NCBI GenBank assembly: GCA_964565945.1
Contig: CAZMGY010000012.1
Span: 1,966-65,965, forward strand
Origin: an uncultured bacterium
GTDB lineage: Bacteria; GCA-001730085
Direction of reading: 5' to 3'
DNA: 64,000 bases
Shown: piece by piece, positions 8,976 to 59,900 of the stretch
Layout: every line of letters starts with the position of its first letter
Position numbering within the stretch: position 1 is the first letter of the stretch
Position numbers and translations under genes: made by a program
The notes under the pieces: generated by a model
Told to the model about the DNA's origin: nothing
What the model saw: only the letters and a program-made list of their open reading frames with translations
Database searches by the model: none

Positions 8976-8984
8976 GGGAGTGAT

Positions 8985-10759: not shown

Positions 10760-10795
10760 TTAGGACTCTAGCGATTTATATTGGAGAGATGTGCG

Positions 10796-14137: not shown

Positions 14138-14237
14138 GCCCTTTTCTGCGTAGCTATTTTCAATGATTTTTTTTGTGTTAAGGAGATAAACTATTGCTAT
14201 TCTTTAGAGAGTGGGTTAGCATGGGGACTCATTTTTT

Positions 14238-14311
14238 GGGGCTGTGGCGCAGCTGGAAGCGCGTCTGAATGGCATTCAGAAGGTTCAGGGGTTCGAACCC
14301 CCTCAGCTCCA
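14238..14311 (+). tRNA. tRNA-Ala (anticodon GGC)
   Basis: Hand-folded cloverleaf: acceptor GGGGCTG/CAGCTCC with a G3:U70 wobble (Ala identity); D-stem GCGC/GCGC; anticodon stem TCTGA/TCAGA with loop ATGGCAT; T-arm AGGGG-TTCGAAC-CCCCT; discriminator A. CCA is not encoded. Confidence 0.8.
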
Positions 14312-14380
14312 AAAATACTTTTCAAATTTTAGAGTCTTTAGGCTATGATGAACGACATAGTCACATGAAGGATCGAAAAA

Positions 14381-35847: not shown

Positions 35848-35877
35848 TTGACTTTTTTGGAGGACTTGAGCTATAAT
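35848..35877 (+). promoter_or_regulatory. sigma70-like promoter for the giant gene (-35 TTGACT, 18-nt spacer, -10 TATAAT)
   Basis: TTGACT at 35848-35853 and TATAAT at 35872-35877, about 65 nt upstream of the giant ORF ATG. GGAG RBS at 35931-35934. Confidence 0.5.
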
Positions 35878-35942: not shown

Positions 35943-38900
35943 ATGCAAAAAGTTCAAGATAAATCACGAATCCTGGCACAGTCGCGATTATCTTCCTTCA
36001 TGAAGGTAATGTCATTGTTAGTTGTTGAGTTTTTTATAGCAACGTCAATGGATTTGGCTTACGCACAGTATTCAGCTCCCAGTGCGATTCGCAATGCCTC
36101 GCATGGATCAAACTATTTGCGTGGTCTCAATTTACATCAAGAAAGACAACGACGCAAGAAACTTAAAAAGCGTCGTGATCAGCATAGTTCTCAACGCAAT
36201 CGTGCTATTTCGGGTTTAACCCAGCAGTCCTTGGCTCATAAGTTACAGTCTTTTGGAGCGGAGGCACTTTATCAATTTGAAGAAATGCGAGCAGTGGCAG
36301 AACAAGCGACTCAGACACTTGATGATGCCCTTAAAAATTTAACGGCCTTTGTTGAGCCCGATAAAGATGGCATTGGGGTTAGACATTATCGTCTCGGTCG
36401 TTTGGATAAACTTGAAAACGTTTACGAAAATAATGCGGATGGATCTGCTTATCGTCGTACAGTGCTATTCAATTATGTCGATGACGGCGACCCCGATTCG
36501 GAAATAGCGTCTTACGTCGAGATGCGCCAATCAGTTTTTGTTGATGAATCGGGTCAAGAGTATTTAAGTGGTATTTATTCGAGTACAGAATGGAGGGGGC
36601 GTTACGATTCTGATGGTAATCTTGCTGAGTTTACGCGTGTGGATACCGATGATTTTGGTGAGGTGGTGACAACACGCTGGGAAGCTATGATTCACGATGA
36701 AAAAGGACAAGCGTTGACGCATGACGAAGATGGACAAGAAATTAAATATTTCGATGAGCGTGGCAATGTTTTAGGATACACCGAAATGATCACTGACTCC
36801 GAAGGGAACACAACTTCTACTGTACGATCTCCCTTCTATACGTCATACGATGACGTGGAGGATCGGGTAACATCGTTTCTGGATATTTATACCGATGAGT
36901 ATGGTCATAAAACGCAAACACATATGACGGAAATGGATTACGTGACGTTGGATGATTTAGGACATTATCGTAGTGAAATCACTGACTTGGATACGAAAAA
37001 AATGACAACGGTGATCTATGATGCGACTTATATGAGCCAGCGAGATGGTGGAACTGGAAACCGTGTGATTCAGTCGTCGGAGGTTCGAATAAATCACCGT
37101 GGAGAGAAAAATACCACCTTATGGGTTTTGGGAGATAAGGGGTATGACAAGTATGGAAATGCCCTAAGCTACGAGAAAAGAATCACTTCCGCTGATGGGC
37201 GTTACGAAGTTGAGCGTTGGGATAATGGTCAATTCCATCATGGAAACCTCTTGTCCTATGATAGTGAGCGAGAGCTGTTCAATGCTTTAGGTCAATTGAT
37301 TGAGCGTGAGAAAGTACTCTCGTACGAAGCTTTTTACGATGGTCGCGGTAATCTCATTGACTATATAAGGGAGTCGACTATCACTACTTATCGCGATGTG
37401 ATCGAGGAAAACCTTCTCGATTATTTGTGGGAGGACTTTTCTGAAACTATGGAAAGTTTAGACCAAGAAGGTCAACGTCAGTTTTTGATTTCACAAGGAG
37501 TTGATATTTCTGATGAGGAGTGGGAGATTTTGGACCAAGATATTTGGGATCGTGAAACCCTGCGCGAAAAAATTTCTCGTTTTGTTGAGCAGGTGGTCGA
37601 TTTAGTTAAATGGGAGTTGATTTCTCAGTCGGCCTGGGATGCATACAGCTTGGAGCAAAAACGAGCCTTTTTGGCTGAAACTGATTTTGTGATTGATGAT
37701 GTTTCTTGGTCAGGTTTAACAGAAGAAGCGAAGTTGAATTTGGTAAATGAGCGTAAAAATCAACGGATTGAGCAACACCAGTTGAGCATCTTAGATCAAG
37801 CTTTGGACAATTATCGAGCGGACGAACGCGCCAAGTTGATTGACGAGAAAAGTGTTGAATATGCAACGCTTGTTTTGAAACGAACTGATACAGTTATTTC
37901 GTCAGGTTTGTGGAATCAGTTGACCAATTTTCAGAAACAAATTTTTCTTAATGCCCGCTCGATTGAAACGGCAGATAATTTTTTCGATTTAGACACAGAG
38001 GCTCAATTTGAAAGTTTACCAAGGCATTACCGCGGAAAGTATCGCGAGCAAGATCATGTGGTTGTCACCTCTGAGGTCACAGAGCATTGGCATAAAGCTA
38101 AGTACAGTGATAACGATTTGCTGTTGTACAATGAGCAAGTGACCGACACGAATGTTTATCGCGAAGAAGGAGATGCTCGTGAATTGATCCAGAAGACCAA
38201 GGAAACAAATATTCGAAATGCTCAGATGGATGACTCCTATGCGAAAGGTCGTTTGCAGCATTACAAAGATTACAATTATGTCGAATACAGAGACCAGGAA
38301 AATGAGTCGGTTCAATCAACGTTTTCTGAAAACGAAACCCGCGTTTTAAGCTTTAATTCGCGCCGTGCAGCTACGGCATACGAAACAGAAAGTCGTGTGG
38401 TTAAAGACCTGTATGCACGTGATGATGTGCAAACGGCCATTGAAAAGTTATTCTCAGAAGATATGTATGAGCTTGCCAAACTTGTCAAAAGCTTATCGGT
38501 GGGTGAGTTTAATACCATGTTTAGGGGCTTTGATTACTTGAATGAACGTTTCAATGCTTACCCGAACTATAGCCAGTTTCTTAAAGTTGTTGATGATAAT
38601 TCTGAACTTTTGAAAAATTTGCAAGATGAAATCAAAACGAAGGGTTTGCCAGGTTCTTTACAGTTTAATTTTGCCAAAATGATGAGCAGTTTAAGCTTCG
38701 CCAACTTTCCAGACTTTGCCAAGGTTATGACTGATCTTCCAGCAACAACTGAGACATCTTTGCGACGAGAGAATATCGTGTTCGATATTGATAATCGCAT
38801 GATGGGTTATGAGGAAAGCGGTACGAATGAGGACGGCCAAGATTACACCACGCAGATGTACGATATCAAGTACGACGGCCGTGGCTTAATGTCCGAATAC

Positions 38901-41900
38901 GGCAACAGTTCTACGGTTGAAGGTGTTCGTACTGATGTTCATCGTTTCAATATGGCTTATGATTTGCAAGATCGAGCTTTGGGTTACACCGAAGAGATTT
39001 ATTCTCAAGGTGAATTTAATGTGGTACAGATGAAGCAAATGGTGTATGACTTTGCCCAACGTTTGTCGGGTTATGAGCGTTATGTTTTTGGTGAAACTGG
39101 TCAACAGGTGTCTTGGGAACGTCAAAGTGATATGGTCTATGATAACCTAGACAACGTCTTATCCTACAATGCTCATCGAGTGAGTGGTGGACAAGAGTCT
39201 GTTGATATTCGATGGGAGGCCGTTGTTTTTGATGCCCAAGGTCGTGTCATAGAAGGATCTCCCTACAATGAAGATGGTCGTATTTTAGGTTTTCGCGAAA
39301 CGGGTGTTGATGTGGCGACACAGCGGCGTTACGAAGTTGTTTCTAGCGGCTATGAGTATTCTGTGGTACCTGAAAAAATGAACCGTGCTGTGCTCTCTTA
39401 CAACACCCAACGCAATGAATACGACTCTCAAGGGACTTTGATGGAAACCGAAAATGTGATTTGGTCCGCTAAGGTTAATGAAAAGAATCAGTCCTATGTG
39501 AATGGACAAGTGGTTGGTTATATCGAAGAGTCAACCAATAGCGTGGATGGCAAGCATAAGACAGATGTTCAGAATAGTTATGATGAACGTGGTAATCGTG
39601 TGGGCGTGGATACATCGATCCATTTTTATACTTTTATGGGAGCAAAAAACCGAGTTGAAAAAAGCGTTTGGGAAGGTGATTACGACGAAGATGGTCTCTT
39701 GGTAAATTCACGTCAGTCCTCGACGGTTAACGGTGTTGCTGTTGATACGATTTCTTATAGTGGGGAATCTTTGGAGCAATATGTGATGGCTTTGGAACAA
39801 GGCCTGTACACGATTGATTTGCGCTATCTTCTGAATGATATTAGTGGCGATGGAAGTGTTGATGCGGTTGACGTGGCTGTTTTTACCCAAAAATCCTATC
39901 AAGAGTTTTTGCAAGCTGTGCTCAATGATACGTTAACTCTTTCTGCCTTAGAGCAGGCGGTTAACCTTTATATTAGCGATGATGCTTTACATAAGAGCAG
40001 TTTGGTGGACATGATTCAATTGATGAAGCGGGGCGAGGGTGACCAAATGTCTCAAACAGAGATGATCCAGGATATTTTGAAATTTTTGATCAAAGATAGT
40101 AATGGCGATGGTCAAATTGATGCGGTGGATGTACGTTTTATGACTGAACCCGCTTTAAGCATGTTATTAAATGACACTTTAGCTCAATCTAAGTCTGTAG
40201 GAGATTTGGCGCAAGATTTTCTTAAGCTTTACCTGACTGATCGTAATGGAGATCAGAGGATTACTTCCGATGATTTGCAAAATGATGACCAAATTCGAAC
40301 CACGATCAACACTGTCCTGAAAGATCGCTGGACGGAGAGTGTGCGCGAAAATATTTCTTACAAAGAATTGAGCTTTCGTCGCGTGAGAGATGGTCAAGTG
40401 GTTGTTGAAAAGGTTCGTATTGGAAATCCGGTCACCTATCGAGAAATCACACGTCGTGCTGAGTCTCCACAGCTTTGGCAAGTGAGTGATGTGAGCGACA
40501 TCAGTTTGGACGGTGATGGGACAATGTTGAATTATACATCGATGATTCAGAACATCGAAACAATTGACGACAAAAGTTTGCTTAATTTTAGCTGGGGAAA
40601 AGTGAGTGCCAATATTGATCAATACGCCGATCCTGAGGGTGTTCGAACTTGGGAACTTCGTCGATACAAAACCCTCCAAAGAAATGCTCGTGGTTTTGTG
40701 ACACGATACAGTGAACGACGGACGGAGCCACAAACAGATCCTCAAAAGGTACAAAGCTTTGAGGCAACGCCTCTTGTGATTGATATCCACTGGTCGGGAA
40801 CGTATCGAAATGGTCAGATGTTTACTTTTAACGAATCTAAGAGACGTCGTGGGGAGGTGTTTGTTAAAAATCACTATCAAGGCAAAGATTTATTGCAGAT
40901 GATGGAGTCTTTAGTGGAACAAAAAAGCTACAATGTTTATTTTGATTTGGTTAAATCAGATGGACAAGCTGGAGTCGATGCGAAGATTACTCAAGAAGAT
41001 CTGGACTATTTAAGGAAACATTTGCTTCGAGACCCTAACTATATTATTGAGTGGGTTGAAAGCGATTCGTTAGACGTTTTTTCGAGAGATGAGCGTGTTT
41101 ATACCTTATATAACACCTTAGGTCAGGTGACTGGTTTTCAAACCCGCAGTTTCAATTCGGCGTCGCCTCGCAAAGAAACCATTTTGACACGTTCCAATAT
41201 TATGACAAACGATTTGGGTCTCGAAATGTCCTTTAACGAACATGTTCAAAAAAAAGGCGAGGGAAGTCAATTTTGGATTGATAGCAGTGAAGCCAATTTG
41301 CCAACTGAGTGGGCTACCCTGACTCTTGATGAAAAACGTCAGCTTTTACGGGGAGAAACCATGGTTCTCAATGGGCGCAATGTTTCTTTGGTCAAGATAG
41401 GGACATCGCATATTTATAAAGATATCTATACGTTTCAGGCCAACACTGTTTATGATTACGCTGGTCGAGTGAAGGGTTTCACGCGATCTGATCGTGAAAT
41501 GGGCCAGAATCAACAAGGCTGGCGTGTGTTAGATGTGTTTAATGTTACCGAGCGTCGAGATATGGCTTATGATAAAGCTGGTCGCTTAAGCACTTTTACC
41601 GAAACTCGCCGTTTGGGGCAGGCTCCAGATGTGATTGAAACCATTGAACGACTCAGCACGGAGTATAACGACGCAGGTTATGTGGATGCTTTTGAGCAGG
41701 TTGAATCTCGCAAAGGAGAGCAACAGGAAACACGGGTTCCTTTCGGGGCCTTGCCTGCTTTTTTGAAAAAAAATGCCCTTTTAACGCCGGCGCAGATTGC
41801 AGCTATTTATAGTGGTCAGCGCGTAGATATTTCTGAAGTTGTTAATGAGAATCGCGACTTGTTTGCTGATATGGATGGCTTAGAGCAAGTGGGCGACAGT

Positions 41901-44900
41901 TACTACATTAAGTTAGACACGGTAACGTCTCAGTCGGAAGTGAACACGCTTAATCGGAGAACGCGTGAAAATATTACTTATAACGCTCTTGGTTTCGAAA
42001 AGAGCTTTAAGGAGCTTTCTGTTGATGAGTTGGGGGTTCACAGATTAACGCTGCAATTTGATATTCGTCAAAATGGACTAGGACAAGTTGTGTCGTTTGA
42101 TCAGAGCGTACGTCGCTATTTGCCAGAGGCTCGTGAAGATATTAGCGATACGTTTGTGGTTTTACCACAAGAGATTTCTGAGTCTGAGTGGAAGGACTTG
42201 GCTTTGGCCAAGAAGTTGGCATTTTTGCGCGGAGATCAATTGGTGCGGGTAGTGCAAGGATCTACTATTCGTTATTTAACCCAAGAAGAATTTTCGGAGT
42301 TTTCCGAAGAGAATGAGCCCAAACAGTATGAAGCGCGGCCTTTGAGAGTTCAACTAATTCAAGAAAGCTTGTTAGAAGACTATGCGCGTTCTTATTTTGA
42401 GAGTCAAGATATGGCCATGTGGAGCTACTTGTCTCAAGAAGGTGGTGCCATGATTCGTCATCGGGATGTTCAAGAGGTTGCTTTGGATGAACTAACATTC
42501 TTATCGCGACGCAAAGCTACTTACAACGACTTTGATCAGATGGTTACCTATGTTGATGAGTCTTGGAATGCTTCGACACCAGGCCTTAAGCAAGTGTCGA
42601 TCCGGACATCCACCGAATATGACAGTGTTGGTAATATTGTTGGATTTCGTGTCGAAGATATCTCTCATGGAGAACTGTCGGTTCGAAAGTTTGATTTAAA
42701 TCGTTTAGAAGTTATCGATGGGCAAGGTGAAATTGCTGTTTTCGATATGGCGGGAATTGGTGGTTTTGAGCGCTTAATGCCCGAAGAGCAAATGAAGTTG
42801 CGTTCGGGAAAAAGTATTATGATTGACGATCAAGAAGTTCGCTTGGCCTTCAAAACAGTGATGCAAACCTTTGAAACATCGCGCGTCACTGAGCGCAAAA
42901 ATATGCGTTATAACTTTTTGGGTCAATTGACAGACTATACCGATATAACGATTGAGAGTACCAGTCCTGATCTTAGCCTGGAAACGACAGTTTCAGGGGT
43001 TCTTTACAATGCCTTAGGGCAGCAAATTCGTTTGGTTCAGTCCCAAAAACGAGAAGGAACAACCCAGAATGAAGTAAGTTATCAAGGTGAAGCTCTGATT
43101 GAAAAGTTGCATGCGTTGGCGGGCTTATCCGAAAAAGGTGAGCTTAAGTCACAATTTGCTCAGTGGTCTCTTTTTGATTTAAATGGTGATGGAGTGATTG
43201 ATACACAAGATATTGATCTTGTTGAACCTGACACTCTTGTGAGTTATTTGCAAATCGTTGAATTGAAGGATGTTCAAACGCAATTGCGCGATATGATCAC
43301 CTATACAACTTTGGGGCAATCGAAGGGGTTTCGCCAAATCAGTATTAATAGCACCGAACCACATGTGCGCGAAGTTTTGGTGCGGCATCACACCGCTTAT
43401 AATCTTGCTGGTTTTGAGCTAAGTTATCAAGAAACGGTGACACGCACAGGTCAAATTGCTCAAGACATGACTTCGACTTTTGTTATGCCTAATGATTGGT
43501 CCGAAGATCAATGGCAACAGCTTTGGCAAAAGGGTGGAACTTTTGATCAGATGACGGAACAGCAACAAAGAGTTTTGTTTACTGGTGGAGCTGTTGTCTT
43601 GGGCGATCAGACATACCAGTTTGAACTCTACACACAAGCTCAAAAGGGTGAAAAACCTCATATGGAAGTTCTTACGTCGTCTCAGAATTCGCACTATCGG
43701 ATGATTGCCGAGGTTGTGGCCGAATATGGTAAAGCTGGTGCTTGGTCCTCTCAAGTCGAAGGCTATGTGCGGACTTTGTTAGAGCAAATTTTGCAAAATC
43801 GCTCGGAAAGTGACGTGATTAACCCTGCCGATGTTCAGGCTGTGGTGAATCGCTTCTTAGAAGAGTTGGAAGGGACTTTGGTTGGCGATGAAAATCAAAG
43901 CCAAAAACATGGAGAAATGGGGCAAAATGATTCCACGGAAGTTCAAAGTCAGCACTTTAAAATTTTAAGATCTTTATTGCTTGGTCCAGAGGATGGGGTG
44001 AACGGCTTTGTTCTGGATCTTGTTGATCAGGTGATGAATCAAGTGGGTGCGGTAACAGAGCGTTCTTTGCGTACCATAACCAAAAAGATTGTTTTTGAAC
44101 GCAACGAAATGGAGCAGCGTTCGCGTGAAGATGCGACCTATAACGCTTTTGGACAGTTGATGAGCTATGTGGACAATGTCTACGAGCCTCTGCTCAACCA
44201 AAAAGTGACAACCCAACGTTTGTTAACGCAGTTTGATCGTGCGGGACGTATTTTGGGATATCAAGATCATGTGGTGCGCAGTGGCTTAGCCTTGCAAAAT
44301 GATCAAATTGATTACAGCCGTGTTGAACGTCTTGGTAGTGGCGAACGTTCTTGGGATGATTTGACGTTTATAGAAGTTAAAGCCCTTTATCGCGGTGAAG
44401 CTGTTTTGATGAATGGGGTTCTGATGACGTTGGATGACTTGCGTATTGACAAAGTGATTCGTTTGTACGAGGTTGAAGATCATGTGCGTCAGAATATGGT
44501 ATACGATCAAAACAACCAATTGCGTTCGTTTGCGGAGCAAAGATTTAATCATAATAATCAACGTTTAAGCACCCAACAAAGAAGTGGAATGCTCTATAAC
44601 TCGTTGGGTCAAGTTACGGAGTATATCGATAATACTTTGGATGAAGGAACTGTCGAGCTTGAGGATGGTTCTTTTATGGATCTTTCGCAGAGTTCGCGCG
44701 TTCATCGTAGCAATATTCAATATGTTGATAATCGAATTTATGCTTACACCGATGTGTCGAGATCAAGTCAGTCTGAAGAAACGCAGGTGAGTGTTCGCGA
44801 GTCGACACACTACAACGCATTGGGGCAGGTGATGGCTTATCGTAATAATAATCATCGTTTCTTGTTTGAAGGTCGTCAAACGATTTTAAGTGTTCGCAAT

Positions 44901-47900
44901 GTGAATGAGCGAACAGGGATCGTCTACAACGCTCTTGGACAAAATATGGCTTACAGTGATTATCAGTGGAATTCATCGGAGCCAGCTAATGCCTCTTGGT
45001 CTTATCGTAGCGATGTACAATATGATGGCTTAGGCCGTTTGAATGCGTACACCGATCGGACGAGAACCTTGCAATCGCCAGATATGAGAGAAACTTTGGT
45101 GATGAACAATATTCAGCACAACGCTTTGGGTCTTCAACAAAGTTATACAGAGTTACGTATTCAAGAAAGCCTGCTAGAGGATTCTCAAGGGGAACCCTTA
45201 TATCAAAGGTTACAAAAGAATAATTACCAAGATATAACTTATGATGCTTTGGGGCGTCGTCAAACCTATCTGCGTTCAGCCGTGACTTCCGATGCTCCCG
45301 ATATGGTGATTAACACGACTTGGACCGCTTTGGCCTACGATGAAAAGTTGGGCGTAGTGAGTGTCTATCGTGATCAAAGTGAACGCATTGGAACAGATGG
45401 AACACGTGTTATGTTGACAACGATTCATGATCAAGTCAAATTTGATCGCGCGGGTCGTGAAATGAGTTATCGAGAGCAAGTTACGGATTCATCGCGACCA
45501 GGTGTTAAGCAAAAACGTTTGAGGATTGATACTGGCTACGATACTTTTGGGCGTGTGGCTCAATACGAAGAATCGAATGCTCAATACAATAACAACCTTC
45601 TCCTTAACTATGTTCTAACGAATCGTAATAACACCTATAACACGATGAGTCAAGTTGAGTCCTATGTGGAGAAGCGGACCACAAATGGCTTAGAGAGCTT
45701 AGCTGAACGTTATGAGATGGCTTATAACTCATTTGGTCAGCTGGAGTCCTACGAAGAGGTAACGGAAAGTCCTAGCACAAGGCTGAGAATGTCGGCTTGG
45801 GGTTTAACGTATGATAGTTTGGGTCGATCTTTGACTCAAAATACACGTTCTGTTGATAGTGAAGGTAATGTCAATATTACCTATAACTGGGGGATGCGCT
45901 ATGATACTTCGGGTCGCACGATCTTTCGTAATGAAGATCGTATTTTGAATGGTGTTCGCTCCCTAGGTATTCAGTGGTATGCTGGTCTGATTCAAGGAAG
46001 CGGTGAGGACGAAAATGAGCCTAAGTTTGATCAAGATGGTGAGCCTTTTTTTATAAAGAAGCCTTCGTTTGACGAATTTGGTAATATTTTGTCGACGACA
46101 GAAATTCGTGTGGATGATCAAGGTCATATCAATGTGAACGTGAGTGAGTATAGCTATGACGCTTATAGCCATCGTGACTCGGTCCAAAGTTTATCTTACA
46201 GCTATACGTCAAATGACTTAAACGATTTAGGAACGATTCAAGTAAGTGAAGTGACAACAACTTCTTGGGATGTTACGGATGGGTATCTAACCCTTACTTT
46301 TGATGTTCTCAATCAGAATGGAGATATTGTTGGCACACAAACGGTTGAAGGGGGTTACGTTTTAGGTTCCGAGCAAATGCAACGTCGTTATTTGATCACA
46401 GATGATGGTCAACGGGTGCTTAAGCAAGTCGGTAACGATGGTGAAGAAGATGTTTACTTCGACATTACCTATTCGAGACAGTCGTTTGCTTACAATGATG
46501 TGGCTGATCAAACCTTTTTGGGATCGGAGTCTTTTAAGTACAGTTTGTCTCAGGAAGCTACAGGAGCGGATTTAACCGACTTTGTTTATGAAAGCAGTCG
46601 GTATCGCCAAACCATGTATGGTGATAACAATCGACGAATCCAAGAGGTGACGTTGCAAAATGAGCGTGGAGTTTACGGATGGGACGTTTTGCGCGATGAG
46701 TTGGGTATAGATCATGAAGTTTGGTCCGAAGTGGGTGATCAACTCGTGAATTTGCGAAAATATTTGGTAACACAGCAAAATGAAATTAAAGTCGGTGTTC
46801 CTGGTGCTCAAGAACAAGCTAATGCTCGCATAGCTGAGGTGAACTCTAGTATAACGACTCTGTTGCGTCAAGCAGGTGTATCTTCTGAAATGATTAGGAC
46901 CTCGTTGAATCAAGTCTTCGGATCACCTCCAAGCTCTGTTTCGCTTGATGGTGTGATTGAGAACTTATTGGGTGTTCAGATTTTAAGTTCTTCAACCTTA
47001 TCTGTTGTCGATACCGATGGTTACGATCAAGTTTCGGGACGTCCTTTACTCGAAAGGGAGCGCCAGTATACGCATCGGAGTGGGTTTGATGTTCGGAGTG
47101 ATAATTCTGATTGGAATTATCAAAAATTCCGTTCGGGAAACGTTAAAATTGATCAGATGCTTGCGGCTAAAGACTCTTTTATCTTGGTTCAAGATGAGAC
47201 GCGTAATTATTCTTACGACGAAAACGGCGTTCGTACAGCGATTGTGACCGAAGATGGTTTGAGTGGTTTTCGAGAAGAAAGTTTCAATATGGAATACCGT
47301 TTTGATGGACTGGTGAAAAGTCGCGTTATGTTGCGGACAGCTCCAGGAGCTGGGGGTAAAATTCAAACCTCGGCTTATAACCAGATCAGTTACACCTATC
47401 ATCCTAACGGTCGGATCGCTCAAACGCGCGTTCGCCTTTATGAAAGTTATGATGGAGTGCGTGGTGGAGGATTGAGGGGGCTGTTGCGAGAGGAAGTGAT
47501 TGATGATGTGTATGACTTTGAACGCAATGTTCTTGTTCAAAAAGTCTCCACACAGTGGGGCTTTTCTGAAACGGATGGGTCACGTTTGTTGGTTAATCGT
47601 CAGGTGGATGATTCGACATATAGCTTGTTCAATCGTGTGAACGGTTTAATTCGATCAATGTACAAGAGCGAAGATGGTGCCGAAAATTCAGTGATTCTTG
47701 ATAATCAAGAAATTTTCTCCAATTACTACTATAGCAGTCATGGTCAGGTGCTATCTCAAAGCGTGCGCAAACTTGATTACAGTGTGGTGGATGTTGAAGA
47801 GGCTGGCCTTGCCGATGAAATTAACGGCTTGAGTGTGACTGACAATGCCGAAACCATGCAAGAAAAAATTATCGATACTTATGTTGCTTGGTGGAAGAGA

Positions 47901-50900
47901 AGGTATGGTCTCGAAAAAGTTGATGGATTGTTGGAGCATGTGATTGATGTTTTTATGGATCTTTTGTTGGCACCCACCAATATTGCTCGTACGGCTAAAG
48001 ATATTTTGGAAGTAGCTATTTACGTTCTTGGAGAAGCCTTTAAATCTTCGAAAGAATATTTAAGAAATGCGGGTTACAGTGTTAACGAAAAATATATGAG
48101 TTATCTTGTTGGTGACGAATTGAGTCATCGCATGATGAGCTATCGTAAAGATGGTCGGGTTAGTGGATCGCAAGATCTGACTTACGATATCGATGGGGTT
48201 GTCAAAGAAAAAAGAACCCTTTCTTATGTTTATGAACAAGAGCTCAATGAAACATTCAAAACCAATCGTATTGCAGCCCAGAATCAACGCAATTATATGT
48301 GGGATGAAGAAGGAAAGGTTTGGAGTTTAGATAGCGGTGCTGATGTTCAAATCACTTATGATCAGTTTAATCGGGTGTCGAGCCGATTGGTGACATCGAT
48401 TGATAAGAATGGACATTATGCTGAAAGTACGGAATATCTTTTTGAGTATGATCACTTGAATCGTGTAACTCGTGAAACACAGCGTCTTTTAGACCCAAGT
48501 GCGTCGCGTAGCGAAACGAGTTCCTTAAGTCGGAGCCGTAAAGCGATTGGAACACTTAAATCGCTGAGCGAAGAAATTAGAGATTATAGGTACGACGCTA
48601 TGGGACAACAGCGTTCGGTGAGTGTGCGTCAAAATGATCTAGGTGTTGTACGTGCTGAAAATCCTTCTGAAATCCGCACATCTTATAATACCGTTTTGAC
48701 ACGGACCAAGAATGGGGCACGCGAAGAGTTCTTTGATGACGAAGGAAATTTGTATCAAGTGGTCACGCATCAATTTACCTTTGATGTGAACGATAATCTC
48801 ATTTTGGATGAAAAGATGACCCTTCGTTACAATGAGCAGGGGCAGGAGATTTCTCGCCAAATTCAGGAGATTCGCAATCAAAAATTTGATAAAAATGGTC
48901 GAGTACTGCATCGCAATACTCAAACCTTTGACATTCTGGATGGTCAACGTGTGAGTGTCGGTCGTGAAGAAGTTCAAACCATTTATCAGGGTATGAACTA
49001 TCGTATTCAAGAAGAAGTGATTACACAGTATGGTTACAATCGTATGCAGCAAGGTACCGAAGTTCCAGGTGTGACGACGCATGTGGTGTATGCCTACGAT
49101 GCACAAAACAGAATGTCGAAGCGTACCACTGTTTCTTATAGTGATCCTAATGCGCAGTTGATAGTTGTTCCATCGGCAAGTGCATTAGATGTTCGCAATG
49201 GGGATGAAGGGCAAACGGTTGAAGAACAATTTATTTATGATCTTTCTCGTCGTCCGATTCAAACTATCAATAAAGTTTATGAGGGTGGTGAACTTATTAG
49301 TGAGAATAGAAGGGTATCGACCTATCTAACCGCCGATCCTAACGATATGCGTGTTGATAAACAAATTGTTGTACAATTGGATGGTGCGGGAGAAATTCGT
49401 TCGATTGTTGTGAACAGCAATTACAGCTATACAGAAGAAAATCGTTATCAGCGTGGTAGTTCAGGTGCTGTTGAGTTTGGAGATTCTGGTAGTATTGAAA
49501 ACATTGGGCCCATTCAGCGTATTTTATTGAACACGGGTTATGATACGGTTTCTTTCACTGATTCGGTGGATGGGATTAGTTTTGATGCATCTGGATTCAT
49601 GTTAATGCCTTCTAAGGAGACTTGGGGGAGTTTACTCAATGCAAAAAATAAAGTGACGAAAAAAAGAACCACATCGTATGATATGTTAGACAGAGAGCTT
49701 CACTCGGAAGTTAAGTCTTACTTGCAAGATTCTTTGATTGGCCGGGAAACGGTATCTTACTATTACAGTGAGCAACGTATGGGTGATGATCGTGCTGTGA
49801 TTGAGGATCAGCGCTTTTATAGCCAAGATGATACCTTTGTGCGTCATATAGTGCAGCAAAATCGTTATGATGCATTGGGACGTATTAGCCAAAAAGATGA
49901 GTTCTTTTTAGATCCAAGCACTTCTTCAGGTGGTTTGATTGAGCAAGGGGTTGTTCTAGATAGTTTTATTCCAAAAACGGGAAGTCTTCAATTTCATCGC
50001 CAGATACTCAATATGGACTACGATGGCGGCTTTGATCGTATTATTGAGCAGGATGAAATTGTTTCGGCTAACTACATTGACCAAAACAATACTGGTGATG
50101 GGCGCAATCAGATCACGCACAGTATCTTTGCCTACAACAATAAAGGGCAAATTATTTCGAGCGAAAAAACACGTTATCAAGCCAACACGGTTCAACATAA
50201 CTTAGAGGATTTTCCTCGTGTTATTGAACGTGAAACAGGTCATCAGTATAACCAGCATGGGGAGGTGGTGTCGTTCCAGACATTGCTGGATACCTATTAT
50301 CTTGAAACTTTGGATAGTGATCAAGTGGTTTTGCGCGATCGTCAAGGAAGTGATGTGACCATTTTTTATCATAAACCAGGTCAAGTATCTCGTCGCGTAA
50401 GAAAGAACTTTGATGTGACAGCTATTAATGATCTCTTAAGCTCTGCCATAAATATTAATGTTGTTCAACTTAGATCTGGCGAATTGATTGACACCGAAGT
50501 AGAGCAAAACACTTACGATGTTCAAAATCGTTTGAAAGAGGTTGACCGAACCTTTACTTTTGCTGGAAAAGAGGACGCCTATCGGATTTATCGTCGTTCG
50601 TTGACGTATGATTCCTTGCAAGATAGACCGAAGCAAGAGATTGGGCGCAATTGGAACGAGCTTGATGATCGGGTGACGCTTTCAGTAACGGATAATATTT
50701 TTCAGGGAGAATTTATTTCACAAGTTTTCACGCGCAGTAGCGAAATTGATGTGGCCAATGATGCTGATCGTAACTTTTTATTAAATATGTCGTCGTCGGC
50801 GGGTGTTTCGGCACGATTGAATTTAAGTTTAGAGAGTAAAAGAACTGTGACTAATCGAGTGCAAAATATACACTCATGGGATTCTCAGGGGCGTGCGGTG

Positions 50901-53900
50901 CGTTATTCGATGAAGCAGTATGATGAGCGTAATCCTCGACGTTCCACGTTTATTGAAAGAAAGTTTACCTTGTTTAACAACACTGATGGTGGTGAAGATT
51001 TTTATGATGAAACCGTGAGAGAAGAAATTGATGGAGAAGTTCTTTCGACACGTGAGCGTGAATATCAAGCGTTTTGGAGAGATTCTCGTGGACGTACGCG
51101 TGGTTATATTTTATCGGAAAAAGTTCGCGATAAGGAGGGTTTGTTACAAACAAAGCAAGTGATCACTCGTTTGGATACCAGATTTGATGTTTACGATAAT
51201 GAAGTGAAGGCTTTCCAGGAAGAGCAAGAGTATGTGAATATTAACTTGGCCGATGATGCGAATGTTGTTTGGTCTATGCGAAGCCATGTTGGAAGAAATG
51301 TTGTGAGCGACTATTTTTCTGAGGGAGAGAATAAGGGCCGTTTATCAAATGAAACGATTACTTTGTACAAGTATGACGTGGCTCAATCGGCAACGAATGG
51401 TTCTCCAGTATTGTTGGATCGTGAAGTTTTGCAGCGAGAGGTTTTGGGCTATCAAAGAGCATTGGCGAACTCTGAACGATTGACATCGCGAAGATACGAT
51501 GCGACGGGTCACTTGGTGCAACATCGTATATCGACGAGTAACCGAACTTTCGACGAGCAAGATCGCATGACGCTCAACGATACAGTCACTATTGATAAGC
51601 TTCGCGAAACGCGTACCATTGAAAATATGAATGTGGTGTCTTTTGATGACTTTGACAACGTGGTGGCTTTTTTACAAACACGTCGTGTCGAAGACTTAAA
51701 TGATTCCGAGATTCTTCTCGAAGATCAAGTGGTTGAGCGTAGAAATTCAGAGTTTGAAGGTAATTTGTTGATTGATAGTTACGAAATCGTTAACAATAAG
51801 CTCAAAAATGATGTACGCCATGTGATTCGGCGCAATCGCACCTATAAATTTGGTCAAGAGGCATCTTCGAATACCTATAACTTTACGGTGAACGTTGAGG
51901 ATCCTGTTTTAAGGTCGGTTGCCGTGTCGCCTGAGCAGCAGATTAATCAAATTTTAAGAAAATTTGGTTTAAGAGATGTGACATCTTTGGATGTTAAACG
52001 ACAAGATGGTCCAGAGATTTTTCAAGATACCTATTTGAAAACCCTGTTTGCACGATCTGACAGTGAAGATTTGGTGGGTAGCAGTTTTACTCGATCCGAC
52101 ACGATTTTTAGTGATCGTGGAGAAAGCTATGGTTATATCAATTATCTTTGGAACAAGGTGGGTGATTACCGCTTGGTTAAAGGGCCAGATGGTGTTTATG
52201 ACTATACTTTTAGCCAAGCTTTGAATCAATTCACTTACGATATTTTCTTTGCAGGTCAGATTGATTTGGGTGCTCAAGGTGCTTCCACTGCTCTTAGTTT
52301 GGAGGATCATTTTAAATTGGAAAACAAGGATGATGTTAGCGTCTACTTATCCGATTTAGAAACTTGGTTAAAAACACCAGGGGACAACCATATTATTTAT
52401 GATGGTCGCGATCAGACCACGGGAGAAAATCGTGAGTTTACACGCATTTCATTAAGACAGATTGAATCATTCGGCAATAAAGGGTCCTTTGATTTTTCAC
52501 CATTTATGTCCTTTTCTCCTGGTGACCCATTCACAGGACTCAAAGATGAGGGGCTCGCCGCTCAAGTCCAAGATATTTCTTTGCACTTTTTTAATGATCC
52601 GAATGTTCATGATGGCGTGGAATATGCTCATCGCATAGTGCGAGGCGAAAAACGTGAGCTTGCTCTAAACCGATGGGTGGTTGGGGGAAAGGATCGTGAT
52701 AAATTTAACTTTACCCTCGTTCGTCGTACCGATACTGATTTTTATGGAGATCAAGTGGGCGAAGATTTCTCTAACCAAGGTCGTTATGGACAGGTGAAAA
52801 ATTATACCGAATATTCGATTTCTCCATCGGGTGAAGAGAGTAAAGTTGTTCGCAATAATATTCATTATTATGTGCCTGAAACGCTTCAGCTGGGGCAAAG
52901 TAAAGTCAATGTCGGTTTAGAACGTTTTTATAACGAGACAACGTATCGTCGTAGTGATAATTTTCATGCAGCGCATATTCGCAATCACGGTGTGACAGGA
53001 CAAATTCACCATTATTCGGAATCCTCCTCACACGCAGGTGATTGGTCGGATAGCCGTTTGGAAGAGAGTGGTCGTATTCAGTATTGGGAAGAAGATGGTG
53101 AAATCATTATTCACATGGATGATTTTATCACACGCTTTTCGGAGAGTTACTTTGTTGCTGACTTTGATAAAGAAGATCGTAAAATTCGTTTAAAGTACAA
53201 AAAAGGACAGGTCAAAAGTTTCCGTGAATACACAAGTAGTGGCGAAGATGCGGGAACTGAATTTTCATCGGCGAATAATCTTTACGACCCTGAAGGCAAT
53301 GCCGTATTTACCGAACGAACTGTGGTGCGTAAACGTGGACGAGGCATTCCCGATGATAACTTTGATTTTGAAAAAACATTCAATGAATACAATTCTTATG
53401 GGTATTTGTTGCGATCACATGTTTATTATAATTTTGATTTTGCTAAAGTGACCACCTATTACAATATGAGAACCAATTCGAATGATGTGGGAACACTTAG
53501 CCATGGTGCACGTCGTCATGTGGCCTATATGGACCAAGAAGATGGACAAATGTATGTGCAGAAATATGATCTTACTGGTGAAAATGCTGCTGATAAGGGT
53601 AAAGGATTTGAAGCCTTTTTAAGAAATATCTACATGATGATCGAAGAAACATTGACCAATGGTGGTGTATTTATTGTCGATAAAATATTCAATAGTTTCT
53701 TAGGGTTTTTTGGTACTGATCCAGTGTTAGAAGATGAACTTCAAATTATGCGTGATAATGCGCATCGGGTCGCAATGTTTCGCCAGGTTTTCGAAGAAGA
53801 TACGAAAGCTTTCACTAAAAGCTTAGAAAATCTTTTAGGCTCTGAAGGAGCGATTATCGCTTCGATAGTTCTTCATGGAGTTTTATTTGTTCTCGCTGTG

Positions 53901-56900
53901 GCTGCTATGGTGTCTACAGGAGGGGCTGCATTACCTCTAATTTTTGCTGCTTTCGCTTTTGGAGCGGCGTATTCTTTGATCCAAACCACTATTTATTACG
54001 ACAAGTATCGTCAGGCGGATACTAAAGCCGAAAAAGAAAAATATTTAAAGTTAGCTTCAAAGTATGCGGCTTATGCGATTACGATTCCTTTTGAGATCGT
54101 TTTCTTCTTCACTGGTTTGCTGGGTTTGGCCGCCACGGCTTTGCGCAGTTGGGATGACTTGTGGGATTCGATTAAGGGCTTTTCGGTGATGTACCTTGGC
54201 TTTATGGAAGGACTTCTTGGTTTTCCCGAGGGTTGGATCTATGACAACATGGTGTCTTTTATGGTGGATTGGGTGGATGAGTTTGGCGGAGATCTTGGAG
54301 GTTCTTTGGCTGTCTTACCATTGTTACTGATTATGGTGTTTGTTGCTGCGATTATTGCAGGTCCAATTGCTATGATTTTTGTGTTGCCATTGCTGTTTGC
54401 TTGGGCTGATGTATCTTTCCTCTACACCGATGAACAGAAACAGAACGTCGAAGTTAAAATCGAGGAACGTCAAAACGCTCTTTTCACTGAGCAGCATCGA
54501 CATATCACACGAACGATTGCAGCTCTGATAGGTATCCTTATGTTGCGTGCTTGGAGTCAAAGTAAAGCGCAAATGAAGCATAAGGTAAAATTGGCGGATA
54601 AACAAATCAAGGCTTTTAATAAACTCAAGCAGGTTGAAAAGCAAAATCAGAAAAACCTAAAAATGACTCGAGAGCAAGTGGTTGAGTCCAATGCCCGTAT
54701 TCGCATGATGGAAGCCAAAATGTGGAAAGAGATTAAAACGAGTACAGATTTGAATCAAGCGAAGCTTTTTTGGCACAAAGTTGGTTCACTTGTATCGTTG
54801 CCAATACGAGTCTTGCATTTTATTGTGACAATCCCTTTTATGGTGTACGGTCTTTTGAATGGTTTAATGATGCGCTCGCTCTCCAACATACGTCAAAAAC
54901 CAATTAGCTACTTGAAGGGTAAGGCGGTTGACGCGGCTAATCGTTCACGACGATCACAAGAGGTGACAAAAACTAATTTGACACAGAAACAGGAAGCCTC
55001 TCGTGAATCGTTCACCTTGTCGCAACGTTTGATTACCAGTATTAATCAGATTCGTAGGGGATGGGATCAGGTTAAGGATGTGATATTCCGTTCTCGCAAG
55101 GAGCGCATTTTGCGTCCTCTTGATACAAAGTCAGGTGTTGTAGGCTTCTCTTCGGGGCGTGGCATTATGGATTATCAGAGAATGTACAAAGGTCGTCCAG
55201 AGGTTAGCTCGGGGCTTGCTTTGAGCGGAGTTAAGCAAAACGAGAGTGGTAAGTTTGAAGAGAAAACACCTCAAGAATTGATTAATACTCTTAAACAGTC
55301 CGAAAGACATTTGGCTGAGAGTGTCCGCAAATGGGAGACCCAAACCTATAAAGCTTACTTGCAATTAAAGTCGGATGGCGTTCAGTCTCAAAGCAAAAAA
55401 GGCGAAAAGACGGTGAGTGATGCAAGTGCTGTGATTCAAGGTGAGCGCTTCTTGTGGGATAACGTGTTGCCAAGCTACGAAGTTCAAAAAATGGATTTTA
55501 GCAAAATGGGCTTTAAAAAGTTTGTGTCGCGTGCTTGGTGGGGACGTTTTTCGACCAAAGCTTACTGGCGTGATGTCTGGGAGGGTATGAAGTGGGATAA
55601 GCGTGACCCGAATGATCCGGATCAGCCTGGTACCCTTGCCAAGTCAGGGCGATTTTTCTCTCGTGCGTCTTTTGCCTTAAAACGAGCTATTATGAAAGAT
55701 CAAGCTAAGGGTGGGTCTTGGGCTGAAAGTGTTCGTTACAATGCTTTGCTCAAGCAGCAGATGGGAACTAAGAAAGCTAAGGTTTTCAAAGAACGCCTCG
55801 AAGAATCTCCGCAACAATATATGCGAACTCTTGCTCAGTGGATGGCTGAAGGTCAGTTGCGTGAAGGGAATGTGAATAGCCGTGGAGGGCAAGTGAGACA
55901 TAAATTATTTATGGAGCATGCGCTTAAAGATATTATCGCTTTTCAAAACGGATCAAATCTTTCCGCCAAGGCTCTTGACGGGGCTTTTTGGAAGACTTTG
56001 CATGAGGAAAGCACACAAAGTCTTCAGGGAATGAACAAATTTTCTCGTTTAGAACTACAAGTGATTGAAGCTTATTGGAATGTGCTAAGTAAGTATCAGG
56101 GGGCGAACTCTTTAAGTGGGATTGATAAACTTGAAATACGTAAAGCCTTAGAGCACGAATTGGTTGAAAGTTTTGTGAATCGGATGGACGGTGTAGCTGT
56201 GATGTTGCGTTATTCCGAAGTGCGTAACGAACAAGGTGAACTGACCAGCTATGATCTGGAGCGGGCAGAAGCCTTTATGCAAAAAGGTTTCTTTCAGTTC
56301 AGTGAGTTCTTTTTGCCGAAGTTACGAGCGTTTAAAAATGTCTATGGTGGTTATGACGGCCGCGAAGAGAGTGGCAATATGGTTCTTAACCGCAAAGGCG
56401 ACAGTCCAGATCACTTTAACGATATGTACAAAGCGCTTAAAGAGAATCAATCGGATGCTTTCTTGCGAGAAGTTGCCTTTCAGTTTCAGCGTATGCCAGA
56501 AAGTGGCCTGTTTTCTCGCAAATTAAAGGTTGAAACCAAGACTTTGAATAGCATGGCAGAAAACTTAGGGAGAAACAACTTTGAGAGTTTAACAACGGCT
56601 CAGCAAACGGCTGTTTTGATTCGTATTCTTGAGAGACGGGGTCTTTTGGAAAATATGAAGAAAATGCTGGGTGAAAAACAGATTGAGTTGGTTATTCTTG
56701 AACATTTAACAGATGCTAAGTCGATTCAGGCCACTGTGATGGAACTTTACAAGGAAGCGACCAAGCCTCCAACAGATCCAAAAGCACCTAAGCCAACGGT
56801 ACCTTCGGATGTTAATCAGCTGCGTCAAGAGTTTGGTCAAAGCAACGCTAACTCTAAAGTGGTTCAAGAGATGAATAGCTTGTTCGAAATTACGGAACCT

Positions 56901-59900
56901 TTTAAGCGTGCCCAAAAATGGACTGAGCATAGCGAATCTTATGTTTATAATCAAGCACGGACCAACGCTATGAAGCTGTTTGCCGAAGAGTCGGCTCGTC
57001 ATATGGACAGCTTGCCAGAACGATTTGCTTTAACTAACGATAGTTATACAATGACGGAGATTAAGGATGCGATGGTGAAGGCTATTGAACCTGTACTGGC
57101 CAAATCAATTACGCATAAGGTCGACCGTCAAAAAGCGGCGCGAAAGTTGGCTCATGAGATTCTCGAGTCAGGGGCGACAGCTGGCCTGATTAAAGTCGAA
57201 AAGGCTCTTTATTTGGAAACGGTCTCTTTGTTTAAATTGCCTCAAAATATTGGCAAAGTGATTGAACAAGCTGACTTGCCAGCGCCTGTTAAAGAAGCTT
57301 TACTTCGCGAAGTTGTGTTGGATCAGATTGTTAGTGCTCTTCGTCTGGAACGGGTTAGTTTAGGAAACAGTGGGGAAGGGATGATTGAGGTTTTGAGCAA
57401 AAACTCCGAAGGACGTTCGGAACTTCTCTTTAATTATGCCAAATTAATTGAGCTAATTCGTAAAGAAGGTGGCAAGCTGGATGCCAGCAAAGAGGTAGAG
57501 TTGTTGCGTATTTTGGAAGCCACTCTCTATGAAGTGACTGGCTACAGTAAAAATAACGCCTATCGCGAAGGAATAAATTACGAAGTCAAGTGGTCGAAAT
57601 TCAATGAGAAATATGTGGGCAAAGGCGAGCAACAAGGTATGATCAATATGGAAAAACTGGTTCATGATTTGGTCGAAGTTTACAAAAAACGTTTTGCTGG
57701 AGAGTTGAGTGAGGCGGCCGTGGAAACCTTAGGGCATGCCACGGGCATGTTTGTGACCTTATCACGTCAAGCCGATACTTTTGCTAGACATTGGGAAAAA
57801 GCGGAAAAAGTTTCCTTCAGTTTTCTGCCGATTCAGCTTGAGGCGGTGTTGGCGATGTTGTCGGGGGGTAACTTGGCTCTTCAAATTCCAACAGGTTTTG
57901 GTAAAACCAACGTGATCACGCCATTCTTTGCCTTAACTTTTTTAGGTGCGGGTGAGTACTTCCCTAATAGCAAAAAGTTGATTCTGGAAGTACCCGAAGC
58001 GGGTAAGGTTGGCGAAATGGATAACGCCCAGTTCAAAATGATTCTCGAAAAAGAATTCGGAGAGGGTGCGCGTGAGCGTTTAACCGCTCAGATGCTTGAT
58101 GCTCAAGTGACATCGAATCCTTTGGAAATGCAACGCTTAATGAAAGCCAGAGTTGTTTTTACCGCGACCGATTGCCTCAATTTTTTGGACTTGTCGGCGC
58201 GGAATCCGCACAAAGCTAAAGATTCCAATGCGATCGCTTTGCGTGATGCTTTAGTTAAAGGTACCACGAGGATTGTGGATGAGATTCATAAATTTGTAAC
58301 CCAGCAAAAGAGCTTTGTGACGGGAACGGATGCTGGTGAAGTGGCTGTGGGTGTGCGCGATGCTAAATTAGCACATTACATTACGGAACAAGCTTTGAAC
58401 TTGATTCAGGAAAAACTAGGCAAGGGCGAAGCTATCTATAATTCTCAAGGAGGTTTTGCCTCAGGTGCAGAGAAGGTTTTACTTGGGAAACGAATGGGGC
58501 AGGGTGTTTTACGCTTTAATCCTGAACGTGTTGGAAATACGGATGTGGCTTTTAGTGCTGCTTTTAAAGTGGAGTTATTGCGGAGGTTGCAAACCAGTCG
58601 ATTGGATGGGTTTAACTTGAGCAGTCAGGCCGCAAAGCTTATGGATCGTTTTGGTGGCCGTGGTGAAAAAGAATTAGCGAATCGCTTGAAGACTCTTTAC
58701 AAGGTGGGTGAACACGATGTTTATTCGGCACCTCAGTTTGTTTTCCATTATTTGGATCATTTGGCGCAGTCCTTTTCGGGACGGACGCGTGTGAAGGAGT
58801 TGCAAAACCGTTATGGTCCCAACCAGGCTTATGAGGTTTTATTGGATTCGAAAAGCAAAATGATTGAACGTGATGAGCATGGTGTGCCTCGGGTTGTTCC
58901 GATGAGTGGTGGGGAAAAACAAGTTAGCCAGAAATACTCGAATCGTGAACATGTTCTATCGATCTATTATTCAACGCTGGCTCAGCATATGTTTCAAGAT
59001 GGTCGTTTTACGGGCAGTTGGAAGAAATCTTTGATTCAGGATGCTAGTCGCATTAAATTACAGCCTGATTCCTATCGCTTGAAGTTAAGCGATCACTTAG
59101 AGATGGCCACACGCGCTGGTCGTGTGCTGGGTTTTTCTGGATCGGTGGTAGGTTCTCAGCAGGCGTTTGAGTTTATGATGGGGATGAAAGTTTGGACCTC
59201 CCAAAGAGCCGAATATAAATTGGCTGGTGATACCGTCGGTAAGTACGTAATTGATCCGATGATGCGTTTGCATCAGAACGAAGTGAGTCAAATTGATAGC
59301 CACGGTATGCGAGAAAAGTTTGAAAAAGCCTTAACCGAAGGTGCCACTGTAACCCCACAGTATCGTCAAATGATTGAGAAACGCTTGAAAGAGCGCTTAC
59401 GTTTCGAAAAAGAAAGTCGAATGGAATTAGCTCAAATCGAAGGACTACTTAAGGAAGTTCCTAAGATTAAAGATGCTTTGTGGCTTCGTGAAAAAACATC
59501 AAGCTCAGAAGGCAAAGAGGCGATTCGTCCTGGTAGCACGAATCCTTTAACCCAACGTTTATTTAATGAGGCGCTGAGACATCAAAAAATCTATGATTTA
59601 TCTGCCAAGCAGGTTAATGAAGGCTATTTGAAGGATCGTACCATCAATCATGACAAGTTGTCGCCGCAGGATCGTTCGGCAAACTATGAAGTGATCAAAA
59701 ATGAAATTGTGGCCGAAGCTAGCTATTTAAGAGCTAAGCATGAGCAAGCTTTGCGTCATCAAGCCGAAATGGAAAAAGGTACCCCTCTTACTAAGCGAGA
59801 GCTTGAAACACTTCGCGAAAAAGTGATGAGCATCGAAGAGACGCGCCAGTTGGCATCGCGTTTGATTGAGCTCAAAACTCAAGGGGATGTGTTAGGGCGT

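Follow-up and report, generated by a model that had tools for sequence, protein, structure and literature searches.

The window analysed here, a 64,000-nt stretch of contig CAZMGY010000012.1, comes from an uncultured member of the PVC group, a relative of the NPL-UPA2-type bacterium that is found in the bryozoan Bugula neritina. A sequence-only reading of this DNA had singled out positions 36400-53500 as encoding an array of about 5,700 amino acids (aa) of degenerate YD/RHS-type repeats, several times longer than the canonical Rhs or teneurin shells. The flagged stretch turned out not to be a self-standing array; it lies inside one giant open reading frame (ORF), which that reading had missed and which goes on to encode a transmembrane cluster and then a C-terminal region of great length. 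On balance, we lean towards the view that the stretch encodes that part of one giant, membrane-anchored envelope protein which lies outside the cytoplasm, and that this part contains a long-strand, Rhs-type hairpin sheet.

The + strand frame is open without a stop from 35910 to 63998, i.e. over 28 kb. The likely start is the ATG at 35943, which is preceded by a GGAG Shine-Dalgarno sequence eight bases upstream; independent gene calls in two further assemblies of this organism, from Logan, chose the identical ATG, and the flanking genes as well as the 5' part of the giant gene are identical in both of these. The runs SRR30621560 and SRR30680197 also carry the gene. GC content (~42% G+C) and GC skew of the ORF are in keeping with the rest of the window. 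The DNA of the flagged stretch is free of tandem repeats, and such direct repeats as it has are trivial; it is thus not repetitive, as the sequence-only reading had maintained. The TrkA encoded in the window shares 73% identity with TrkA of MDLB01000104.1, from 'PVC group bacterium (ex Bugula neritina AB1)', in which the same Bat-TrkA-TrkH order is also followed by a giant ORF. The product of the latter is collinear with aa 1-2793 of the window protein (30-60% identity), with YD-like motifs conserved position by position. Given this syntenic, collinear orthologue with conserved motifs, the giant gene is genuine rather than an artefact of assembly, and it is conserved and under constraint.

All ten YD motifs quoted by the sequence-only reading are present where it had placed them. 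The motif YDxxG occurs 22 times in the protein, compared to 1.9 +/- 1.5 times in residue shuffles; for [YF][DN]xxG the respective counts are 51 and 5.9 +/- 2.3, and for [YF][DN]xx[GND] they are 77 and 17.5 +/- 4.1. The boundaries proposed for the array are accurate, since 76 of the 77 motifs of the last kind fall within aa 176-5875 (nt 36468-53570) and a single one is found in the remaining 3,450 residues. The motifs had been described as recurring continuously, which does not hold: there is approximately one per 75 aa, and motif-free gaps extend over 200-480 aa. Gaps of 28-40 aa between neighbouring motifs are nevertheless in excess (20 versus 8.4 expected, P ~0.0006), with a mode of 30-32 aa. 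When the protein was compared with itself by chunked all-against-all BLASTP, a check on which the array had been expected to stand or fall, both periodicity and internal repeats were recovered, the latter being up to ~230 aa long and 20-30% identical, with E-values down to 7e-13. Detectable internal repeats are confined to aa ~940-3460. Thus, of the ~5,700-aa array, the repeat-bearing portion at aa ~180-3600 stands; aa 3600-5880 are without detectable repeats, and the region as a whole is not uniform.

The consensus of the repeats in the first of these portions, hereafter Part A, is approximately R-x4-Y-[DN]-x2-G-[RQ]-x3-[YF]-x-E, with a spacing of ~30-36 aa. A lenient hidden Markov model (HMM) of the motif recognised ~44 units in the window protein, and a strict HMM of a 24-residue unit, trained on members of the family described below, found 10 units as opposed to 30-60 in the relatives, having too little power on the window protein. 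Hydrophobic-moment profiles along the protein did not discriminate between alpha and beta structure.

Profile models did not place the protein in the YD/RHS families. No match to RHS_repeat (PF05593) was obtained at E <= 0.01 with the protein scanned as halves; in a scan of ten 1,000-aa slices at E <= 10 the model was hit once, near aa 4381-4396, with 21.5 bits against a cut-off of 22. Searches with NCBIfam, including its TIGR YD_repeat model (TIGR01643), gave zero matches in the giant protein. PF05593 and TIGR01643 were the very models by which the earlier assignment was to be judged, and their failure to reach threshold speaks largely against it. Neither phmmer with aa 2700-3400 nor hmmsearch with a profile built from the window protein and two homologues retrieved any Rhs, Tc or teneurin chain at E <= 10 when run against all PDB sequences. 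The unit, at ~30-36 aa, also differs from the ~20-22 residues of YD repeats. A pattern search for PxxxxDPxGL, the autoprotease motif at the end of Rhs cores, found it absent from the 9,352 visible residues, the true C-terminus being located beyond the window. No toxin family was matched in the visible protein by Pfam or NCBIfam, and no Pfam match was found in the giant protein to EGF, NHL/beta-propeller, FN-plug or Tox-GHH domains; no Pfam family at all exceeds its threshold anywhere in it.

Structural modelling provides the closest link to Rhs-type proteins. AlphaFold2 was run on aa 2877-3345 with a three-row alignment consisting of the window sequence and two segments of P0001, and returned a model with a predicted local distance difference test (pLDDT) score of 74.7 and a predicted template modelling (pTM) score of 0.46. 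The predicted strands (Table 1) are 10-18 residues long and are joined by turns of ~5 residues, so that one strand plus turn takes up ~17 aa and one hairpin ~33 aa. The five best Foldseek matches in the PDB were all Rhs/Tc shells, with E-values from 8e-10 to 8.5e-6; these included Tse15 (8uy4, 8e-10), VgrG-Rhs (8qja, 1.3e-9) and TcdB1-TccC2 (6l7i, 8.5e-6). The next class of matches, outer-membrane barrels, begins at 3.8e-3; a membrane barrel is excluded for the ectodomain because of the length and the charge of the region. When viral models were searched, MORN-repeat proteins were among the best matches. For this one 469-aa segment the model thus predicts a beta-hairpin fold, namely a large antiparallel hairpin meander whose local geometry and sequence are closest to those of Rhs-type sheets.

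Homologues were found for the repeat-bearing portion of the protein. An indexed search with aa 1700-3400 yielded two, of 2,954 and 2,431 aa, with 22% identity and without Pfam domains. A profile search of 1.84 billion representative proteins delineated a family, as yet unnamed, of 176 representatives at E <= 1e-3, many of which are fragments and several of which are giants of 4,000-8,000 aa; MFH1258653.1 and MBI3292258.1, both annotated as 'hypothetical protein', come from metagenome-assembled genomes of Elusimicrobiota. Slices of the window protein within aa 1-3600 match between 1 and 86 of the 151 representatives listed, with E-values down to 1e-59, and slices beyond aa 3600 match none of these 151. 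The order of parts in members that are long enough comprises a signal-like N-terminus, YD-like repeats, a transmembrane cluster positioned right after the last motif and a variable tail, and is like that of the window protein in P0006, P0012, P0017, P0030, P0043, P0052, P0090, P0095 and others. The tails differ among members, and none is matched by the C-terminus of the window protein.

The family shares with the window protein profile similarity over aa ~1-3600, the order of parts and helical inserts of the W..L....K type; it differs in that the repeats of the window protein are more degenerate and that no member has a counterpart of aa 3600-9352 of the window protein. The unit is easier to recognise in the relatives: it spans ~33 residues, W-x4-Y-D-x-Y-G-R-L-x2-Y-x-E-x3-D-x2-G-N-x5, and displays both turns of the YD unit, with longer strands. 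Of the 14 members scanned (48,000 residues), one reaches a Pfam family, and that family is RHS_repeat (E 1.6e-6). In the light of the self-repeats, the conserved motifs, the RHS_repeat match within the family and the Foldseek results, it is fair to describe the first ~3,500 aa as Rhs-like beta-hairpins extending far beyond, indeed several times, the length of a canonical shell. Membership of the YD/RHS family itself was not established by these searches.

Two further observations were made on the relatives. Both closest database relatives are encoded directly downstream of RND efflux genes, unlike the window gene, which follows trkAH: locus L001 (590-27520) has genes for a membrane-fusion protein and two ACR_tran proteins upstream, and L002 (211-14784) has two ACR_tran genes. 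In L001 only one stop and 6 nt separate the 2,954-aa ORF from the next ORF, which has at least 3,472 aa and the same type of repeat, and the pair may represent a single gene divided by a stop. By eye, several members (P0006, P0010 and P0012) end, after the hydrophobic cluster, in motifs such as DHSQG, GHSQDG and GHSGG, which resemble the nucleophile elbow of alpha/beta-hydrolases or lipases; P0006, the only one of the three that was scanned, gave no Pfam match.

The layout of the window protein is summarised in Table 1. A hydropathy scan showed one N-terminal peak and none in aa 41-5960, so that ~5,850-5,900 acidic residues without a hydrophobic helix separate the signal-like segment from the transmembrane cluster; an equivalent N-terminal hydrophobic segment is carried by the orthologue. 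The repeats of Part A are interrupted by helical W..L....K..L inserts. Its aa ~490-920 (37400-38700) are poor in motifs and helical-looking, with repeated W/L-rich segments, e.g. WEILDQDIWDRETLREK, SAWDAYSLEQKRAFL and GLWNQLTNFQKQIFL, which resemble the W..L....K inserts that lie between repeat blocks further along the protein and in relatives. The ectodomain contains four DxNGDG loops, for which the EF-hand models overall gave E-values of 0.1-9 and Dockerin_1 at most 18.5 bits. For the first three, the Pfam models Dockerin_1 and EF-hand were all sub-threshold (E 0.1-0.4); the fourth is kept in the orthologue as FDLFNDGVINEKD. Part B has no detectable internal repeats, no family matches and no homologues (search with aa 3700-5900), and hhalign of the repeat profile against aa 4060-5900 detected no similarity to Part A.

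Table 1. Features of the giant gene, its putative promoter and the tRNA gene of the window. Positions are those of the window; residues are numbered from the likely start codon.
Feature	Position (nt)	Strand	Residues (aa)	Description
tRNA-Ala (anticodon GGC)	14237-14312			Flanked by uvrD/pcrA and the gene for the PilT-like ATPase; no other RNA gene was found in the window
Candidate sigma-70-like promoter	35848..35877	+		TTGACT / 18-nt spacer / TATAAT; 11/12 consensus matches, candidate by consensus alone
Giant ORF	35943..63998	+	1-9352+	At least 9,352 codons from ATG 35943 with GGAG; runs past the 3' end of the window
Signal-peptide or signal-anchor-like segment	35988..36062	+	16-40	Kyte-Doolittle peak 1.68; ends ...LAYAQ
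Part A of the putative ectodomain	36468..46742	+	~176-3600	Degenerate long-hairpin YD-like repeats; motif enrichment, internal repeats, spacing, homology
Three EF-hand/dockerin-like loops	39834..40280	+	1298-1446	DISGDGSVDAVD, DSNGDGQIDAVD, DRNGDQRITSDD; motif search
Fourth EF-hand/dockerin-like loop	43161..43223	+	2407-2427	DLNGDGVIDTQD; Dockerin_1 18.5 bits, cut-off 22.9
Modelled segment (469 aa)	44571..45977	+	2877-3345	AlphaFold2: 28 predicted antiparallel strands
Part B of the putative ectodomain	46743..53582	+	3601-5880	Acidic; sparser YD-like motifs, many Y-x-Y-D-x2-[GN]-R
Transmembrane cluster	53820..54872	+	~5960-6310	At least 5 strong hydrophobic helices by hydropathy
C-terminal region	54873..63998	+	6311-9352+	Basic, Lys/Glu/Ala/Leu-rich; at least 3,040 residues
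SF2/DExH-type P-loop motifs	57828..58322	+	7316-7322, 7445-7449	Walker A PTGFGKT (7316-7322); VDEIH (7445-7449)

Within the transmembrane cluster, at least five hydropathy peaks fall in aa 5971-6308; Kyte-Doolittle peaks of 1.9-2.9 are located at aa 5971, 5995, 6046, 6122 and 6283, and it is at this cluster that the net charge of the flanking sequence turns from acidic to basic. No homologues of aa 5901-9352 were found among 5.8 billion clusters or among the family members. The P-loop motifs of the C-terminal region are of the superfamily 2 (SF2)/DExH type; over them Pfam DEAD scored 21.6 bits, below its cut-off of 26, and SecA_DEAD was not listed. The sole PDB sequence match was to the MDA5 helicase domain (E 0.88), in an alignment that spans Walker A. 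Short motifs collinear with those of SecA can also be picked out in aa 7316-7734 (57888-59144), albeit without statistical support: PTGFGKT itself, FTATDCLNFLDL compared to YGTNNEYGFDYL, VDEIH to VDEVD, and LGFSGS..QAFEF to LAGMTGT..EAFEF. A relationship to SecA is not supported and is a lead at most: BLASTP against E. coli SecA (an approximate sequence) gave only fragments at E >= 1.8, and the Smith-Waterman score was no better than that of shuffled sequences (z = -0.15). The only cysteine among the 9,352 visible residues is at aa 7411; the 12 other ORFs of the window contain 1.04% Cys.

The topology that we infer from this layout is as follows. The signal-like N-terminus would send ~5,850 acidic, nearly Cys-free residues across the cytoplasmic membrane. 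At least the first ~3,500 of these would form a long antiparallel hairpin sheet, YD/Rhs-like but with strands ~1.5 times longer and a unit of ~30-36 aa, in which helical and Ca-binding-type loops would be inserted between hairpins. The sheet would most likely project from the cell as a hollow, extended beta-helix, as a tube or as shells arranged in a chain, and this structure may serve contact with the surface of a host or prey. The transmembrane helices at aa 5960-6310 would anchor the protein, leaving in the cytoplasm a C-terminal portion of at least 3,000 residues with its divergent DExH P-loop motif, which may supply the energy for exporting or assembling the protein, or may link the protein to cellular processes.

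Several observations weigh against this interpretation. The fold evidence consists of one model, obtained from a three-sequence alignment, with a pTM of 0.46, and template modelling scores to Rhs shells amount to only 0.15-0.27. Single-sequence AlphaFold2 prediction of aa 4060-4900 reached a pLDDT of 29.8, providing no usable model for Part B. YD/RHS profiles remained below threshold, and sequence and profile searches of the PDB came back empty for Rhs, Tc and teneurin chains. The ATPase assignment is made from two motifs and a sub-threshold match to Pfam DEAD. Furthermore, the ~3,040 C-terminal residues, with only one Cys, are as poor in it as the exported part, which is odd for a cytoplasmic domain, and the window stops short of the 3' end of the gene and of the genes downstream.

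Some of these points can be read in favour of a different ancestry. The hairpins might belong to an independent repeat class that has converged on the Y-D-x-x-G turn and builds a fibrous or sheet-like surface layer, in which case 'Rhs-like' would denote structural analogy; such an explanation concerns the ancestry of the repeats and not their function. The failure of the YD/RHS profiles, a unit of ~30-36 rather than ~21 aa, the additional Foldseek matches to MORN-repeat and other hairpin proteins and the 13 of 14 family members without an RHS_repeat match are all in line with convergence. However, the similarity to the YD consensus is not limited to the turn but includes several further positions (R-x4-Y-D-x2-G-R-L-x2-Y), RHS_repeat reaches E 1.6e-6 in one member and comes within half a bit of its cut-off in the window protein (21.5 versus 22), and the Rhs/Tc shells that make up the top five PDB matches of Foldseek are ahead of the next class by about three or more orders of magnitude. 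We regard independent origin as possible, although doubtful. An Rhs/Tc-type polymorphic toxin, in which one or several YD cocoons would enclose or chaperone a C-terminal effector, the hydrophobic cluster would act in membrane insertion or translocation instead of as a lasting anchor and the variable tail would be the cargo brought into a target cell, seems unlikely. Effectors of the type VI secretion system with Rhs repeats and TcB-TcC do top the Foldseek list, the region following the cluster varies across the family as toxin tips do, some members end in GHSxG-like hydrolase motifs (noted by eye), and the near absence of Cys from the whole visible protein is often seen in exported or translocated proteins. 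On the other hand, the protein lacks PxxxxDPxGL throughout its 9,352 residues and matches no toxin families in Pfam or NCBIfam, PAAR, VgrG, TcA or other delivery genes were not found by Pfam in the 36 kb upstream, no immunity-like gene is visible within the window (the 3' end of the gene lies beyond it), and a C-terminal region that numbers at least 3,040 aa greatly exceeds what known Rhs or Tc shells can hold.

That the gene is a chimera of the assembly, or a pseudogene in decay whose frame is open by accident, is close to refuted. The lack of any homologue found for aa 3600-9352 and of any Pfam domain at threshold in the protein might be taken as signs of it, but a stop-free frame of 28 kb at ~42% G+C cannot be due to chance, and its composition and skew are uniform with the remainder of the window. 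Moreover, the 5' part recurs unchanged in two other assemblies, a collinear orthologue occupies the same genomic position in another species, and there are no DNA repeats able to mislead an assembler. A more elaborate proposal than the anchored envelope protein that we prefer is that the family represents a single-polypeptide envelope machine of a kind not described before, composed of an Rhs-like, long-hairpin hollow tube outside the cell, a transmembrane bundle and a very large cytoplasmic region with an SF2/DExH motor and operating as a self-contained, contact-dependent conduit that exports itself or passes material. We consider this improbable, slightly more so than the toxin; if it were true, the proteins would be neither passive adhesins nor classical Rhs toxins, and would handle traffic to or from a host or prey cell.

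Giant proteins have been described in Omnitrophota, and very large genes also in Elusimicrobiota, Planctomycetota and other phyla of the PVC supergroup (West-Roberts 2023, bioRxiv 10.1101/2023.11.21.568195). In their 'Dockerin-type' class a long N-terminal part is devoid of transmembrane helices, and AlphaFold2 predicted tubules in the form of hollow, antiparallel beta-helices, 'sharing features with RHS repeat proteins' (West-Roberts 2023). A catalogue of 916 giant proteins reports repeats that are old and diverged at the DNA level, most of the proteins being unique in sequence (Nielsen & Lui 2026, bioRxiv 10.64898/2026.06.07.730766). As judged from their published descriptions and layout, the 'Dockerin-type' giants are like the window protein in being encoded by a single ORF of many thousand residues of mostly 'dark' sequence, with an N-terminal part that is free of transmembrane helices and predicted to lie outside the cell, transmembrane anchors towards the C-terminal third, a region after the anchors with a divergent DEAD-type P-loop (putative in the window protein), dockerin/EF-hand-like loops, predicted Rhs-like antiparallel sheets and old, diverged repeats without DNA repetition. 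The window protein differs in that its nearest genome is a PVC-group NPL-UPA2-type genome rather than one of Omnitrophota, with family members in Elusimicrobiota; in lacking Dockerin_1, TSP3, carbohydrate-active and SecA_DEAD domains at threshold level; and in that type II secretion or sugar-transport neighbours were not seen upstream of its gene. These giant PVC-supergroup proteins with Rhs-like beta-helix tubules are the closest description available. That such giants exist was already known; what is new is a repeat type missed by current models, in a rare unnamed family.

Compared to the Rhs/Tc shells (8uy4, 8qja, 6l7i and YenB/RHS2, 5kis), which provided the best Foldseek matches, the window protein has in common the Y-D-x-x-G-R-L turn motif, a weak RHS_repeat signal and predicted antiparallel hairpins, which may form one continuous sheet. 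It differs from them in its unit (~30-36 instead of ~21 aa, with strands of 10-18 residues), in the length of the region (4-8 times that of a shell), in the lack of PxxxxDPxGL, in that PAAR, VgrG or TcA partners were not seen upstream, and in that the repeats lead into a transmembrane cluster with 3,040 or more residues behind it instead of a small toxin. Teneurins, such as fly Teneurin-m (8fia), are membrane-anchored and display a YD-type sheet outside the cell for cell-cell contact, as is proposed here. Their topology is that of type II membrane proteins, whereas in the window protein it would be reversed, with the signal-like segment first and the anchor after the repeats; the latter protein is, in addition, bacterial, has several helices of transmembrane type and includes a second, very large soluble region.

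The surroundings of the giant gene are largely of a housekeeping nature. Every window ORF of at least 250 aa is on the + strand; only five - strand ORFs reach 150 aa (155-233 aa), all of them inside + strand ORFs. GC skew is positive throughout (+0.05 to +0.27, mostly ~+0.2), which is an unusually strong strand bias. Genes for RarA, NadC, CoaX, GroEL, ZnuA, PurA, AccC, UvrD/PcrA, tRNA-Ala and a PilT-like ATPase are present, as are those for NqrA-F, a MoxR-DUF58-BatA/B/D aerotolerance operon with TPR proteins, and TrkA/TrkH. The putative promoter listed in Table 1 sits within the 131-nt gap 3' of trkH. Most of the upstream ORFs of at least 150 aa were assigned by Pfam to housekeeping, Nqr, Bat or Trk functions, and PAAR, VgrG, TcA and other delivery genes were not found by Pfam among the ORFs in the 36 kb upstream. 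Four of the upstream ORFs had no Pfam match; these include a 560-aa ORF (22093-23775) between the Nqr and MoxR/Bat operons, located in the sole 2-kb bin where GC skew falls to 0.05, a 307-aa ORF (26157-27080) inside the Bat operon and a 211-aa ORF (10781-11416) after accC.

If the preferred interpretation is correct, there is a long-strand architecture of YD/Rhs type, with ~33 residues per hairpin, that Pfam and NCBIfam models do not recognise, and the ectodomains containing it would exceed every solved Rhs, Tc or teneurin shell several times in length. Proteins with this architecture would be anchored in the membrane of their own producer, with thousands more residues on the other side. A defined and searchable family of 176 representatives is added to the mostly unannotated giants of the PVC bacteria, and a dedicated repeat model could annotate it. 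The genome of the closest sequenced relative is ~1.9 Mb, and the visible 28 kb of the giant gene would correspond to ~1.5% of such a genome, which suggests that these proteins are important for the way in which these uncultured PVC and Elusimicrobiota lineages live in association with hosts or prey.

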